From the NCBI GenBank assembly GCA_000092065.1, contig CP000584.1: a stretch of 64,000 nt of DNA. The stretch is one strand, 5' to 3'. This stretch comes from Ostreococcus lucimarinus. Its lineage: Eukaryota. Below, one piece after another: positions 1,850 to 5,865 of the stretch; the stretch's first letter is position 1, and every line of letters starts with the position of its first letter. A model generated the notes under the pieces. That model searched no databases. It saw nothing but the letters and a program-made list of their open reading frames with translations, and was not told the DNA's origin. The translations under genes and the position numbers were made by a program.

Positions 1850-2666
1850 ATGGCGAGCGTCGCGCCGCGCGCGCGATGCGGGACGATCAAGGTGCGCGAG
1901 TTCGCGCCTCGCGAGCTCGGACGGACGCGGCGTGGGCGCGCGCGGCGACGGCGCGCGACGACGTTTTGGATATCGGTTTAGATACGGCGCGAGTTCGAAC
2001 GAAGGATGCGCGCGCGTTTCGCGAACGGACGACTGACGAACGCGCCGAGCGCGCGCACAGACTATCGTGAACGCACCGACGAAGCGAGGCGCGCGAACGA
2101 CGACGCGCGCGAGTGGTAAGGGCGATGGGAAGGATCGGGTGTACATTGGCAAGGGACGTTACGTCGAAGACGACGCCAAGAAGTACGCTGGGCGCGATAA
2201 CTGGTTCACCGGCGGATGGCCGGGCGGAGAGAAGCAACTGAAGGAAGTTTTCATTCAAGAAGAAGCGGCTGCGGCCGCGCAGGCGGCGAAGGAGAGCGCG
2301 AAGAATGAGCTTCCAGAGTACGCCAAGGGCGACGATACTATTTACGTCGGCAAGGGTAAATACGTTAAAGGTGACGCGAAAAAGTTCGCAGGTCGCGATA
2401 ACTTGTTGACGGGCGGGTGGGCCGGTGGTGAGGTCGGACTGAAGGTTGGGGAGAAGCTGAAGATGAAGAAGGGTGATTTAGTCAAGGTGGCGGCGGGCGG
2501 CGGTTTCTTCGGCATGGGCGGTAAGCCCCAGCGCGTCGGCACCGTTCGCAAAGTGAACGTCAAGAAGAACGGCGATTGCACGATTGAAATCGCCGTGTTG
2601 CCGTTCGATCGCGTCGAAACCGTGGACAGTTCTCTGTGCACGCCGACCACACTGGAGGAAATGTAA
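1850..2666 (+). CDS. plastid-targeted protein with tandem ~45-aa repeats (two exons: 1850-1891, 2061-2666)
   Basis: ATG 1850 encodes 'MASVAPRARCGTIK', then donor GTGCGCGAG at 1892 and acceptor CACAG at 2060. Exon 2 continues in frame ('TIVNAPTKRGARTTTRASGKGD...'). Repeats 'YIGKGRYVEDDAKKYAGRDNWFTGGWPGGE' and 'YVGKGKYVKGDAKKFAGRDNLLTGGWAGGE' are followed by a KOW/SH3-like C-terminus. The ORF-track 'M' at 2067 is GTG with no in-frame ATG, which requires the upstream exon. Confidence 0.6.
1892..2060 (+). other. spliceosomal intron (GT-AG, 169 nt) with GTGCGCGAG 5'ss and GACGACTGACGAACG branch motif
   Basis: Joins the 1850 ATG exon in phase 0 to the 2061 exon. Shares motifs with the other introns in the window. 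Confidence 0.6.
2662..2666 (+). promoter_or_regulatory. TGTAA polyadenylation-type signal overlapping the TAA stop
   Basis: 'gaaaTGTAAacg'. TGTAA is the canonical green-algal poly(A) signal. Similar motifs at 24519-24523 and 38564-38568. Confidence 0.4.
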
Positions 2667-2760
2667 ACGCGTGAACGCTCGTTCTCGAATGACCGCGCCG
2701 CGACGACAGGAACCAGGGGTCTGACGCTCTCGTCCGAACTCGTCCTATCGCGAGTTTCGT

Positions 2761-2802
2761 TAATATTCAATACTTTAATATTCAATACTTTAATATTCAA
2801 TA
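2761..2802. repeat. AT-rich 15-nt tandem repeat (taatattcaatactt x ~2.8)
   Basis: Direct reading: 'taatattcaatactttaatattcaatactttaatattcaatac' lies in the GC-rich 3' intergenic region. Confidence 0.85.
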
Positions 2803-2888
2803 CACACCGATACCGACACCACCGCGAACGATCGTACGCGTCGCCGCCGCAGCCGCCGCCTGCGCCGGTCCTCAGACGCCGGCGGTTC

Positions 2889-3266
2889 ATGCCCGCCGCC
2901 GCGCCACCGGCATCCCCTTCGACGCCGTCGGCGACGATATCTACCGCGCCCACGCACCCCGCCAACTGCTTGTGCTGCATCGGCGGCCCCGACCTGTCGT
3001 TCGAGCGCGCCGTCTTTTCCATCCTCGCATTGAAGTTGGGCTTTGAGTACGACACCGCGGCGAAGTTTATTCGTCTCTGCCGCGCCTCGCCTCGAATGGT
3101 GCTGAGTAAAGGCAAGTTTAAGGTCGCATCGAAGGTGCGAGGGAAAGATATCGACGCGCTGAGCGCGGAGGAGGTGCAGAGGGTGCAGGATGCGGTGCTA
3201 GGCGAGTACGCGGGGACGCTGGCGTTGGAAGAGAAGCAAAGAATCGACGCCGGTACGCGACGTTGA
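2889..3266 (+). CDS. hypothetical protein (125 aa); possibly a 5' exon of the downstream adenylation-domain gene
   Basis: ATG-initiated ORF with non-Arg-biased composition ('...MVLSKGKFKVASKVRGKDIDALSAEEVQRVQDAVLGEYAGTLALEEKQRID'). Its TGA stop is only 8 bp upstream of the next ATG on the same strand. Confidence 0.35.
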   Translation: MPAAAPPASPSTPSATISTAPTHPANCLCCIGGPDLSFERAVFSILALKLGFEYDTAAKFIRLCRASPRMVLSKGKFKVASKVRGKDIDALSAEEVQRVQDAVLGEYAGTLALEEKQRIDAGTRR

Positions 3267-3273
3267 CGTCGCG

Positions 3274-5865
3274 ATGGTGAACGCAGATGGACTACACACG
3301 GTGTGTGATTACGCACGATGGAGAGCGTGCGATCCCACGACGCGATTTCGCGAGGCGGTGCGATATTATGAAACGTTGAACGGCGCGCCGACGACGTTGC
3401 GCTTTGGCGAACTTGTCGACGAGGCGACGCGTTTGAGCGATTTTTTCGCGCCGTACGCGAAGTCAGCGGTACGTGACTCTCCGCCTTGTTGCGTGATCAC
3501 GCTTGAAGACGGCGTGGAAGTGTTCACATGCCAGTTGGCGGCGATGTTTGCAGGTATGGCGGTGTCACCGATGAGTACGCGAGATCCTGCAAAACGATTG
3601 GCGAGCGTCTTTGCAGACGCGGATGTCCGCATCGTGATCGTTCGTGATGGGGACGAGGCATTGAAGGTGGGCGAACTCACGAATGCGAAAGTTTTTACCG
3701 TCGAAGCGTTATTCAGGGCCCAACAACGATCAGCCACTGCGACCATCGCAGTAAAAGCCGACGACGCCTCGCACGTGTTTTTCACGAGTGGATCTACGGG
3801 GCGACCGAAGGGCTGCGTGGCTTCACACGCCGCGCTGTTGTCATACTGCGAAGCGAAGAACATTGCACATGAAATTGACGGTACAAGTGTTGTGTACTGT
3901 GCGAGCAGTCACATGTTTGACCCGCACTTTACGGATTTTTGCAGCGCCATCGTCGCCGGCTGTACGTTGACTTCAGCGTCGCGTGAAGTCACGTTCGCGC
4001 GACTCGGTGATGCTTTGCGAGTATCGAGCGCAACGCATTGTTTGACGACGCCTATTTTGCTCAGTTCGGTACGAGAAATTCCGAGTTTGAAATATTTGCG
4101 GCTCGTCGCGCTCGGCGGAGAAACGATGTCTAAATCGCTCGCGCAAGCTTGGCTCGATGCCGGCGTTCGAGTGGCAAACACATACGGCGTCACGGAATGT
4201 GTCGCGTATCAGACGTTCTGTGAGATAAAACAAGCGTCAAACGATGACTTGCGCACGTTGGGGGATCCACTTCCGGGTAATACATTCATATTTGCCGCCG
4301 ATCCCGGCGACGATCCGACGTTGACGGCGAAAGCGGGCGAGCTTGCAGAACTATGGATCGGCGGGCGCCAGGTCGGGAACGGATATTTGAACCGTCCTGA
4401 GCTCACATCGGCGCGTTTTAAAAATAATTTGTACCGAACGGGCGACATAGTTAAAGTTTCCTCCGACGGCCAGCACATTCTCGTCGGACGTCGCGACGAT
4501 CAAGTGAAGATAAGCGGTCAGCGCGTCGAGCTTGGAGAAGTTGAAGACGCGATTCGCCGTACGTGCAGCGCGTTCACACGTGAAGTGAAGTGTGTTCTGG
4601 CAAGTACAACAAAACAGCTCATCGCTTATTGCACTGGATCTTTCACGGACGTTGACACCGTGGTCACGGCGGCCATGCGATATGCCGTCGCCCGAGAGAT
4701 TCCTCAGCACATGGTTCCATCCATGTTTGTGTTTTTGGACGAGTTGCCGATGACGTCGACAGGAAAAGTTTCGCGCGCGGATTTGTCGCGGCGCGAAGTC
4801 GATGTGCGCGAGCAGGGATGCGCAATCAAGTTTGGTGAGTTTGGTGCGGATTTGGCACGAATATGGTCAGATGAGCTTGGTGTCGATGTAACGCACGGTG
4901 ATGCGGATTTCACAGCGAATGGTGGCGACTCGCTACGAGCGCTTAGAGTAGTTCAGCGAGTAAAAGCGCTCATCATAAAAGAAGACGTCGACGCTGGTGG
5001 TGGTACGTTCGGCGAAGCACTCGGGGCGTTTGCGCCCATCGAACTGTTACAGCGCTCACGGCTAAATGACTACGCGCGCTTTATTCGCGGCAGCGTCGAA
5101 GACTGGCCTTCAAGATATGCCACGGATTCAGACGCCGATGAAGCCGAGGCAACGCTCAGTGATATCGATATCGGCTTGCACGTATTGATTCGCGCATCAG
5201 CGGCAGGTCACGTGAGTTTGGTAAAGCTGCTCGTCGATGCAGGCGTTAGCGTCGATCCAAACTCACGCTCAACGCCGCTCCACGTGGCGTGCGCCAATGC
5301 GCGCGTCGAATGCGTGCGAGCGCTCCTTGATTCCGGTGCCTCCGTGAACGCGCTCGGTACTAGCAGAAGAACGCCGTTGATATTTGCCGTTTCTTCGCCG
5401 ATGTGTACATCTGAGCTCGTGAAGATTCTGTTGGGACGTGGCGCCGCGATTGGCGCAGTCGACGAGGACAAGCAAACTGTTTTGCACGCCGCGGCGCGGG
5501 TGGGCGCGGCGTCTTCGGTCATCGGCACCTTACTCGACGCGCAGTCTACTTCATCCGCGAAAGGTAAAGCGTCAAAAAAAGCGTTGATGTTGCACGTCAA
5601 CGCTCTCGATGTCTGGGGACGTACCGCCTTGCACTGGGCCTCGGTAAACGGCCATCGCAACGCGTGCAAATCGCTCCTCGAGCGAGACGTAGACGCATCG
5701 ATCAAAGATGTCAACGGCGAAACCGCGCGCGACATAGCCGAACGCCGCGCGCTGTGTAGCGCCCAGGAGCGCCCCAGAGGCGGTCGGCCGAGCACGTGGG
5801 GCGACATCGCCAACTTACTCGGCGGAAGCGGAGCTACGAAACACCTCAAAGCGTCTCTGGCGTAA
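3274..5865 (+). CDS. NRPS-like single-module enzyme: adenylation domain - thiolation (PCP) domain - ankyrin repeats
   Basis: Adenylation motifs 'FFTSGSTGRPKGCVASHAAL', 'NTYGVTECV', 'YRTGDIVK', 'GRRDDQVKISGQRVELGEVE', 'PMTSTGKVSRADL'. Phosphopantetheine site 'ANGGDSLRALRV'. C-terminal ankyrin repeats ('TPLHVACANARVECVRALLDSGASVN', 'RTALHWASVNGHRNACKSLLERDVD'). Confidence 0.85.
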   Translation: MVNADGLHTVCDYARWRACDPTTRFREAVRYYETLNGAPTTLRFGELVDEATRLSDFFAPYAKSAVRDSPPCCVITLEDGVEVFTCQLAAMFAGMAVSPMSTRDPAKRLASVFADADVRIVIVRDGDEALKVGELTNAKVFTVEALFRAQQRSATATIAVKADDASHVFFTSGSTGRPKGCVASHAALLSYCEAKNIAHEIDGTSVVYCASSHMFDPHFTDFCSAIVAGCTLTSASREVTFARLGDALRVSSATHCLTTPILLSSVREIPSLKYLRLVALGGETMSKSLAQAWLDAGVRVANTYGVTECVAYQTFCEIKQASNDDLRTLGDPLPGNTFIFAADPGDDPTLTAKAGELAELWIGGRQVGNGYLNRPELTSARFKNNLYRTGDIVKVSSDGQHILVGRRDDQVKISGQRVELGEVEDAIRRTCSAFTREVKCVLASTTKQLIAYCTGSFTDVDTVVTAAMRYAVAREIPQHMVPSMFVFLDELPMTSTGKVSRADLSRREVDVREQGCAIKFGEFGADLARIWSDELGVDVTHGDADFTANGGDSLRALRVVQRVKALIIKEDVDAGGGTFGEALGAFAPIELLQRSRLNDYARFIRGSVEDWPSRYATDSDADEAEATLSDIDIGLHVLIRASAAGHVSLVKLLVDAGVSVDPNSRSTPLHVACANARVECVRALLDSGASVNALGTSRRTPLIFAVSSPMCTSELVKILLGRGAAIGAVDEDKQTVLHAAARVGAASSVIGTLLDAQSTSSAKGKASKKALMLHVNALDVWGRTALHWASVNGHRNACKSLLERDVDASIKDVNGETARDIAERRALCSAQERPRGGRPSTWGDIANLLGGSGATKHLKASLA

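Follow-up and report, generated by a model that had tools for sequence, protein, structure and literature searches.

Two long open reading frames (ORFs) that follow one another almost without a gap on one strand of nuclear DNA may be two genes, one interrupted gene or two cistrons of a single message. This question is raised by a locus of the picoalga Ostreococcus lucimarinus (GenBank assembly GCA_000092065.1, contig CP000584.1), analysed here within a stretch of 64,000 nucleotides, termed the window, whose numbering is used throughout. The upstream frame, ORF1, encodes a small protein, and the downstream frame, ORF2, a large enzyme-like protein with adenylation, carrier and ankyrin-repeat regions. 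An earlier note on this DNA had placed ORF1 at 2889-3266 and the ORF2 start codon at 3274 on the same strand, and both coordinates and sequence were recovered as described; it had further proposed that removal of a 34-nt segment bounded by GT and AG would fuse the two frames into one. The comparisons presented here indicate that ORF1 and ORF2 are, with high confidence, two separate cistrons joined by neither intron nor fusion. With less assurance, they probably form one conserved bicistronic nuclear locus, in which ORF2 would be reached mainly by ribosomes that scan past the poorly placed start codon of ORF1.

Two reading frames that almost touch

Seven bases (3267-3273, cgtcgcg) separate the stop codon of ORF1 from the ATG of ORF2, and both frames described earlier were confirmed. 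ORF2 lies in the +1 frame relative to ORF1, and this frame is open from 3202 onwards. The product of ORF1 ends in ...IDAGTRR, while that of ORF2 begins with MVNADGLHTVCDYAR and matches the Pfam family AMP-binding at residues 31-372 (E=3e-41), in addition to a weak match to PP-binding and to several ankyrin families; ORF1 itself matched no Pfam family. The first 6,259 positions of the window are reproduced without gaps and with 100% identity in two independent SRA assemblies, and the exact 125-aa product of ORF1 is present on 484 public contigs, so the junction is not an error of sequencing or assembly. Other neighbouring genes on the same strand, on this and on related contigs, are 110-222 nt apart. 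The tightness of ORF1 and ORF2 therefore exceeds chance, in agreement with the initial impression that the spacing is too narrow for two ordinary independent nuclear genes.

The junction in related lineages

Metagenomic and genomic contigs of related picoalgae, representing at least 11 lineages, were compared across the junction. All of these contigs are syntenic around the locus and have an ORF1 homologue immediately before the adenylation-ankyrin ORF, yet the spacing from stop to start ranges from -17 to +30 nt and all three relative frames occur (Table 1). Every lineage keeps the stop codon of ORF1 and carries an ATG 2-8 codons before the conserved core of ORF2, ...TVCD[YH]AR... or its equivalent. 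The ORF2 orthologues are 847-874 aa long and start at the equivalent ATG, and distant homologues, among them a dinoflagellate protein of 871 aa, likewise do without an N-terminal extension. An extension homologous to the small frame, for which the earlier note had suggested looking, was found in none of 75 ORF2 relatives (a fused query was covered to at most 76%), nor was an ORF1 homologue fused to an adenylation domain among 35 ORF1 relatives. As the AMP-binding profile begins at residue 31 and homologues exist without the extension, ORF2 is complete without ORF1.

The linkage is not universal. In a distantly related organism with AT-rich DNA (GCA_016850925.1, contig L041, 3487-6535) an adenylation-carrier-ankyrin homologue of 844 aa and 40% identity is preceded, at a distance of 40 nt, by an unrelated ORF of 157 aa that contains HRHFHIIP and has no significant Pfam match. 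These two ORFs may be another tight tandem pair. On present evidence, ORF1 seems to be linked to ORF2 only in Ostreococcus and near relatives of it, which we take to be Mamiellales; for the two most distant contigs, L031 and L032, this placement is presumed.

Splicing, recoding or error as proposed means of fusion

The segment 3253-3286, gtacgcgacgttgacgtcgcgatggtgaacgcag, is bounded by GT and AG, and its deletion would join ...EEKQRIDA to DGLHTVCDYARW... in frame and without a stop, giving the peptide IDADGLHTVCDYAR across the hypothetical fusion. A spliceosomal mini-intron at this place would unite ORF1 and ORF2 in one protein of 980 aa. Its length alone does not exclude it, since a survey of expressed sequence tags (ESTs) in O. 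lucimarinus reported a shortest intron of 26 bp, a mean of 188 bp and a class of 40-65 bp on chromosome 2 (PMC2367439); for the same reason, an argument against the intron from its length, considered at first as decisive, was dropped. In its favour, too, the two closest relatives have retained a GC..AG segment, in frame, at the equivalent position. In the closest of them (L012-14, ORF1 98% identical) the donor GGT is GGC, a change that is synonymous in ORF1, and L015 likewise has GC at the donor position; in both, these GC donors stand in a poor flanking consensus. None of seven other, more distant lineages has a homologous pair of donor and acceptor. In-frame G[TC]..AG segments spanning the junction are found in each lineage, 5-14 of them at non-homologous positions (eight in the window, of 13-34 nt), so a pattern such as that at 3253-3286 is expected by chance.

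Further evidence against splicing comes from the geometry of the junction. Three relative frames occur among the lineages and L003 has two stops in frame (TGA ACC TGA), so there is no single event of splicing, frameshifting or readthrough that could be conserved. Every lineage also retains the ATG that the supposed intron would enclose, a conservation for which an intron gives no need and which counts against it. Together with the lack of any fused homologue and with the unspliced state of the orthologous junction in RNA contigs (see below), the unconserved donor and the varying frame make the mini-intron very improbable. Compared with the short introns known from Ostreococcus, the segment has the same GT..AG ends and, at 34 nt, comes near to the shortest of 26 bp (PMC2367439), but it differs from them in its unconserved splice sites, in its retention in the orthologous RNA and in the conserved start codon that it contains.

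Fusion by a programmed +1 frameshift, by readthrough of the stop codon or through an error of sequencing or assembly, of which the frameshift and the sequencing error had been named earlier as alternatives to the intron, can be given still less credence. In favour of recoding, ORF2 lies in the +1 frame here and this frame is open well before the ORF1 stop. The occurrence of frames 0, +1 and +2 and the double stop of L003 contradict it, and the identity of the junction in independent assemblies and hundreds of contigs contradicts an artefact. The remaining suggestion, an unusually large upstream ORF, is in effect borne out, in the form of a conserved upstream cistron that codes for a protein.

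ORF1 as a protein-coding gene

A database search returned 14 relatives of ORF1 with 57-100% identity, which, save for a few chimeric or truncated entries, end at their own stop just past a conserved ...LALEEKQR. Pairwise ratios of non-synonymous to synonymous substitution rates (dN/dS) among nine lineages are 0.09-0.37, with dS saturated or nearly so where the paired lineages are distant. Searching 1.84 billion representative sequences with a profile yielded 35 family members, of 58-328 aa apart from two repetitive outliers of 601 and 662 aa, and in the family alignment C27, C29, C30, P34, D35, F60, R62, S73 and K78 are invariant and C64 nearly so. The AlphaFold model has four helices with a mean predicted local distance difference test (pLDDT) score of 85.7. 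From the low dN/dS, the invariant residues and this confident model it follows that ORF1 is a real protein-coding gene, whose product is, as predicted from sequence and model, a small helical protein of a CxCC...C family.

ORF1 is under-annotated in GenBank. The record XP_001417289.1, a 'predicted protein' of 56 aa from Ostreococcus lucimarinus CCE9901, corresponds to the last 56 residues of ORF1 (3096-3266), the model starting at the internal Met70 and leaving the conserved N-terminal half with the CxCC motif unannotated.

Members of the family also occur alone. A stand-alone gene for a protein of 142 aa (contig L033, 5001-5429, GCA_000372725.1) has no adenylation gene beside it and is flanked by a DHHC gene and a Kringle/Notch-like gene; the assembly is one that we take to be of the haptophyte Emiliania huxleyi.

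Some variants of ORF1 were observed in addition. A metagenomic variant, P0107, has an in-frame deletion of 20 aa (window about 3160-3220) that joins KDIDAL to ALEEKQR between short direct repeats, and thereby loses most of the last helix along with an out-of-frame mini-ORF described below. In L012 (position 3417) and L015 (position 1057), corresponding to about 2805 in the window, an extra in-frame ATG lies 72-84 nt upstream of the ORF1 start and would give versions of 148 and 153 aa; the window has ATA where L012 has ATG. Two further entries, P0013 and P0014, combine foreign N-termini with the last 36 aa of ORF1 and were considered as markers of an internal transcript 5' end. They derive from the metagenome scaffolds L036 and L037, in which the match to the window begins at 3153-3155 and of which one holds a fragment of deoxyhypusine synthase and the other a run of N. 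Both scaffolds are probably chimeric through a shared GC-rich k-mer, and the two entries were treated as chimeric assemblies and not as evidence.

Transcripts and transcription start

RNA evidence comes from the sister species O. mediterraneus, to which proteins labelled as MMETSP transcripts (Transcript_523 and Transcript_7914, 'type:complete', UniRef100_A0A6U0EYS0) in the orthologue cluster of the L025/26/29 lineage belong. The encoding transcriptome contigs from three datasets (L038-L040; 3600, 3594 and 3568 nt) have their first base 7, 1 and 5 nt before the start codon of ORF1, respectively, and hold ORF1, its TAG stop, a spacer of 27-30 nt and ORF2 without splicing. They are colinear with the genomic sequence, from which they differ only by indels of 2-3 nt and one of 20 nt just past the ORF2 stop. 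Unspliced continuity of two separate cistrons, which the earlier note had regarded as incompatible with its intron, is thus seen in the orthologous transcripts.

In the window, a 15-nt tandem repeat with the unit TTAATATTCAATACT forms the only AT-rich block near the locus, upstream of ORF1, and no comparable block precedes ORF2. Most related lineages (L012, L015, L003, L018, L025 and L020) have motifs resembling TAATA[CT]T some 85-180 nt ahead of the start codon of ORF1. By its composition and position, the repeat region at 2760-2803 is probably the core-promoter region of a transcription unit comprising ORF1 and ORF2, and the TAATA[CT]T-like motifs may be a conserved core-promoter element.

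A different arrangement, in which ORF1 and ORF2 are overlapping monocistronic genes, ORF2 being transcribed from a start of its own within the 3' part of ORF1 while the mRNA of ORF1 ends within ORF2, has to be weighed against a shared transcript. In its favour, intergenic regions in Ostreococcus have a mean length of less than 200 bp, and transcripts that overlap have been described (PMC2367439); short-read contigs do merge with the convergent gene downstream, and GenBank annotates a separate small gene at this place. Opposed to this are the wider spacing of other same-strand neighbours, the constancy with which the pair is held between -17 and +30 nt across lineages whose synonymous divergence is saturated, the promoter-like AT-rich block found upstream of ORF1 and not of ORF2, and the start of the transcript contigs of all three datasets at the ORF1 ATG. 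The synonymous constraint at 3198-3201, described in the next section, also opposes it, the last ~85 nt of ORF1 behaving as a scanned leader. Two overlapping genes are on this balance quite unlikely.

How ORF2 may be reached by ribosomes

In the window, ORF1 starts in the context cggttcATGcc, with T at -3, and ORF2 in gtcgcgATGgt, with G at both -3 and +4. In each of the nine Ostreococcus lineages whose ORF1 start is defined (L018 was re-read by hand), position -3 of that ATG is a pyrimidine, whereas the ORF2 ATG has a purine there in 7 of 10. Between the two starts one or two internal ATGs are found (three in L018) against 3.6-5.5 expected, a ratio of observed to expected of about 0.25-0.55. 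One of these is the conserved in-frame Met70; another opens an out-of-frame mini-ORF, which is closed after three codons in every lineage that has the out-of-frame ATG. The codon that supplies this closure, a Leu codon of ORF1 at 3198-3200, is CTA or TTA followed by G in 10 of 10 Ostreococcus sequences, which places a TAG in the +1 frame. No other Leu codons are as scarce in ORF2 as CTA and TTA, each of which accounts for 4 of its 78. The amino acid that follows the conserved Leu varies between G, V, E and A. The more distant L031 and L032, which are without the out-of-frame ATG, use common Leu codons at this site. Conservation of CTA or TTA before G is the outcome of selection that would be expected if scanning ribosomes cross ORF1 and must not be trapped before they reach ORF2.

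These features suggest the following route. One mRNA would start upstream of ORF1 and downstream of the TTAATATTCAATACT repeats and carry both ORFs. Part of the scanning 40S subunits would initiate at the ORF1 ATG in its poor context, and the remainder would leak past this and past the single weak in-frame ATG; initiations at the lone out-of-frame ATG would end after three codons, upon which scanning could resume. The subunits would then initiate at the well-placed ATG of ORF2, and termination followed by reinitiation at the nearly touching stop and start may add to its output.

Reinitiation might instead account for most of ORF2 translation on the same bicistronic mRNA, by a coupling such as that of caliciviruses, influenza B and bacterial operons, in which ribosomes that complete ORF1 would remain on the message and start again at the nearby ATG. 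In favour of this, no lineage departs from a stop-to-start distance of -17 to +30 nt, a range that includes the classic overlaps ATGA in L020-24 and TGATG in L019; a Chlamydomonas construct with a 6-nt spacer is described as giving good bicistronic expression, at first attributed to reinitiation; and 40S subunits are able, after termination, to migrate a short way in either direction. Reinitiation, however, becomes less efficient the longer the upstream ORF is, and ORF1 has about 120 codons. In the two green algae studied by experiment, stronger start contexts at ORF1 went with lower output of ORF2, a relation that contradicts reinitiation. The poor context of the ORF1 start, the depletion of ATGs and the conserved quick stop are, moreover, expected under scanning-through and unneeded for coupling. 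Translation of ORF2 mainly by reinitiation is therefore considered unlikely. The split between leaky scanning and termination-reinitiation is nonetheless not settled by sequence, and reinitiation would be a reasonable secondary or alternative route.

A bicistronic locus translated by leaky scanning has to be judged against several points that weigh against it. The RNA evidence stems from short-read assemblies of a sister species, and the status of these contigs as transcriptome sequences rests on the MMETSP label of an identical protein and on the near coincidence of the contig ends. At the 3' end they extend into the convergent gene next to the locus, which means that RNAs overlapping one another can be joined in such assemblies, and given such merging a second start site inside ORF1 would be compatible with the contigs. 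The base at -3 of the ORF2 ATG is a pyrimidine in L003, L025 and L026, and start contexts were graded by the general rule (purine at -3, G at +4), not by a consensus of the Kozak type specific to Ostreococcus. The depletion of ATGs gives P = 0.07-0.45 in single lineages and is significant in none, and the lineages are related to one another. Overlaps of the ATGA and TGATG types are met more often with termination-reinitiation than with leaky scanning. On the other side, conserved ORFs with separate termini, the absence of fusion, selection on ORF1 at the level of the protein and unspliced two-ORF RNA contigs in the sister species directly support two cistrons in one locus, from which we infer co-transcription in O. 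lucimarinus and the leaky-scanning route.

Comparison with known systems

The closest parallel is the class of bicistronic loci of green algae (Gallaher et al. 2021, PMC7896298; Duenas et al. 2025, PMC11892635). In these, ORF1 has a median length of 291-357 nt, 5' leaders are short and ORF1 start contexts are weak (PMC7896298, PMC11892635), the spacer has a median of 40 nt in Auxenochlorella, and the median ratio of observed to expected ATGs before ORF2 is 0.48-0.49 (both PMC11892635); experiments favour leaky scanning over reinitiation (PMC7896298, PMC11892635). The locus described here shares with them a small ORF1 (about 300-400 nt) just before a larger ORF2 on the same strand, a very short spacer, a weak ORF1 context and conservation between species. 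ATGs before ORF2 also tend to be few, at a depletion significant in no single lineage, and RNA contigs, here short-read assemblies of O. mediterraneus, carry two ORFs. It differs in its shorter spacers, which include true overlaps of stop and start, and its assignment to the class is made from features at the level of sequence. In those studies O. lucimarinus and Micromonas served only as genomes in which to look for orthologues of loci from Chlamydomonas, Chromochloris or Auxenochlorella (PMC7896298, PMC11892635), and the pair of a CxCC protein and an adenylation-carrier-ankyrin protein is absent from the 2025 supplementary tables under 'ankyrin', 'AMP-binding' and 'adenylation' (PMC11892635). 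By these features the locus would best be filed with the green-algal bicistronic class.

Other systems are comparable in part. The CDC26-TTM3 locus of land plants and green algae is likewise a deeply conserved nuclear bicistron with a small protein-coding upstream ORF, but the proteins are unrelated. Caliciviruses and influenza B (AUGA or UAAUG), and coupled genes of bacteria, resemble the locus in the close apposition of two long ORFs, which overlap (as in ATGA and TGATG) or stand a few bases apart. Coupling in these viruses and in bacteria requires a specific RNA element upstream, or else a Shine-Dalgarno sequence. The locus departs from them in that its other features point to scanning-through.

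A small protein encoded right beside an adenylation enzyme recalls the MbtH-like proteins, small partners of bacterial adenylation domains, and by this analogy the CxCC protein might have a partner role. A more far-reaching version would make the locus an operon-like module, in which the CxCC protein is a dedicated partner of the enzyme (e.g. an activator, a chaperone or a metal-dependent regulator) and the stoichiometry of the two is set by prokaryote-style coupling through an overlap of stop and start (ATGA or TGATG) after an ORF of 120 codons; this we regard as a doubtful possibility. If true, it would represent a mode of nuclear expression not yet shown in Mamiellophyceae.

Features of the locus and its surroundings

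The neighbouring genes are eukaryotic and encode TMEM208, a GST, a DnaJ protein of the DNAJC9 type and a WD40 protein, and the gene directly upstream of ORF1 (2067-2666) corresponds to GenBank XP_001417288.1. From these neighbours and the GenBank protein matches, the window is nuclear DNA of an O. lucimarinus-type picoalga. On the minus strand, an ORF of 324 aa (2342-3316) lies opposite ORF1 and the intergenic stretch that precedes it. It has no Pfam match and was rejected as a gene, being treated as a spurious open frame of GC-rich sequence.

Table 1. Features at the ORF1-ORF2 locus of the window, and spacing (ORF1 stop to ORF2 start) and relative frame of ORF2 in the lineages compared
Feature or lineage	Position	Strand	Gap (nt)	ORF2 frame	Remarks
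ORF1, upstream cistron	2889..3266	+			125 aa; ATG 2889, TGA 3264-3266; 378 nt
ORF2, downstream cistron	3274..5865	+			863-aa adenylation/carrier/ankyrin-repeat protein
Tandem repeat, 15-nt unit TTAATATTCAATACT	2760..2803	+			2.9 copies, 100% matches (Tandem Repeats Finder, TRF); 85-130 nt upstream of ORF1 ATG
Conserved internal in-frame ATG, Met70	3096..3098	+			context cctcgaATGgt, pyrimidine at -3
Out-of-frame mini-ORF	3190..3201	+			ATG CGG TGC TAG, three codons; TAG formed from CTA (3198-3200) and the next G
Proposed 34-nt GT..AG 'intron', chance pattern	3253..3286	+			holds ORF1 stop, 7-nt spacer and ORF2 start codon 3274-3276
Window, L012-14, L015, L018			+7	+1	
L003/L004			+6	0	TGA ACC TGA ATG, two in-frame stops
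L007/16/17/28			-17	+1	overlap
L019			-1	+2	TGATG
L020-24/27			-4	+2	ATGA
L008, L025/26/29			+24 or +27	0	
L031, more distant			+30		ORF1 47% identical; downstream ORF matches AMP-binding
L032, more distant			+7		ORF1 41% identical

Significance

For the gene models of O. lucimarinus, the analysis provides a correction: the full ORF1 replaces the truncated GenBank version of 56 aa, the enzyme starts at ATG 3274, and no intron or fusion is to be annotated between the two. Mamiellophyceae have the most compact genomes of free-living eukaryotes, and the locus adds to this class a well-conserved candidate bicistron whose discovery did not depend on queries from Chlamydomonas or Chromochloris. The natural series of junctions, from an overlap of 17 nt to a spacing of 30 nt, could help to separate leaky scanning from reinitiation, and the rare codon that closes the out-of-frame ATG is a simple signature by which other upstream cistrons that are scanned through could be searched for genome-wide. 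The pairing, finally, links a widely distributed and uncharacterised family of small CxCC proteins to an adenylation-ankyrin enzyme of marine algae that resembles non-ribosomal peptide synthetases (NRPS).

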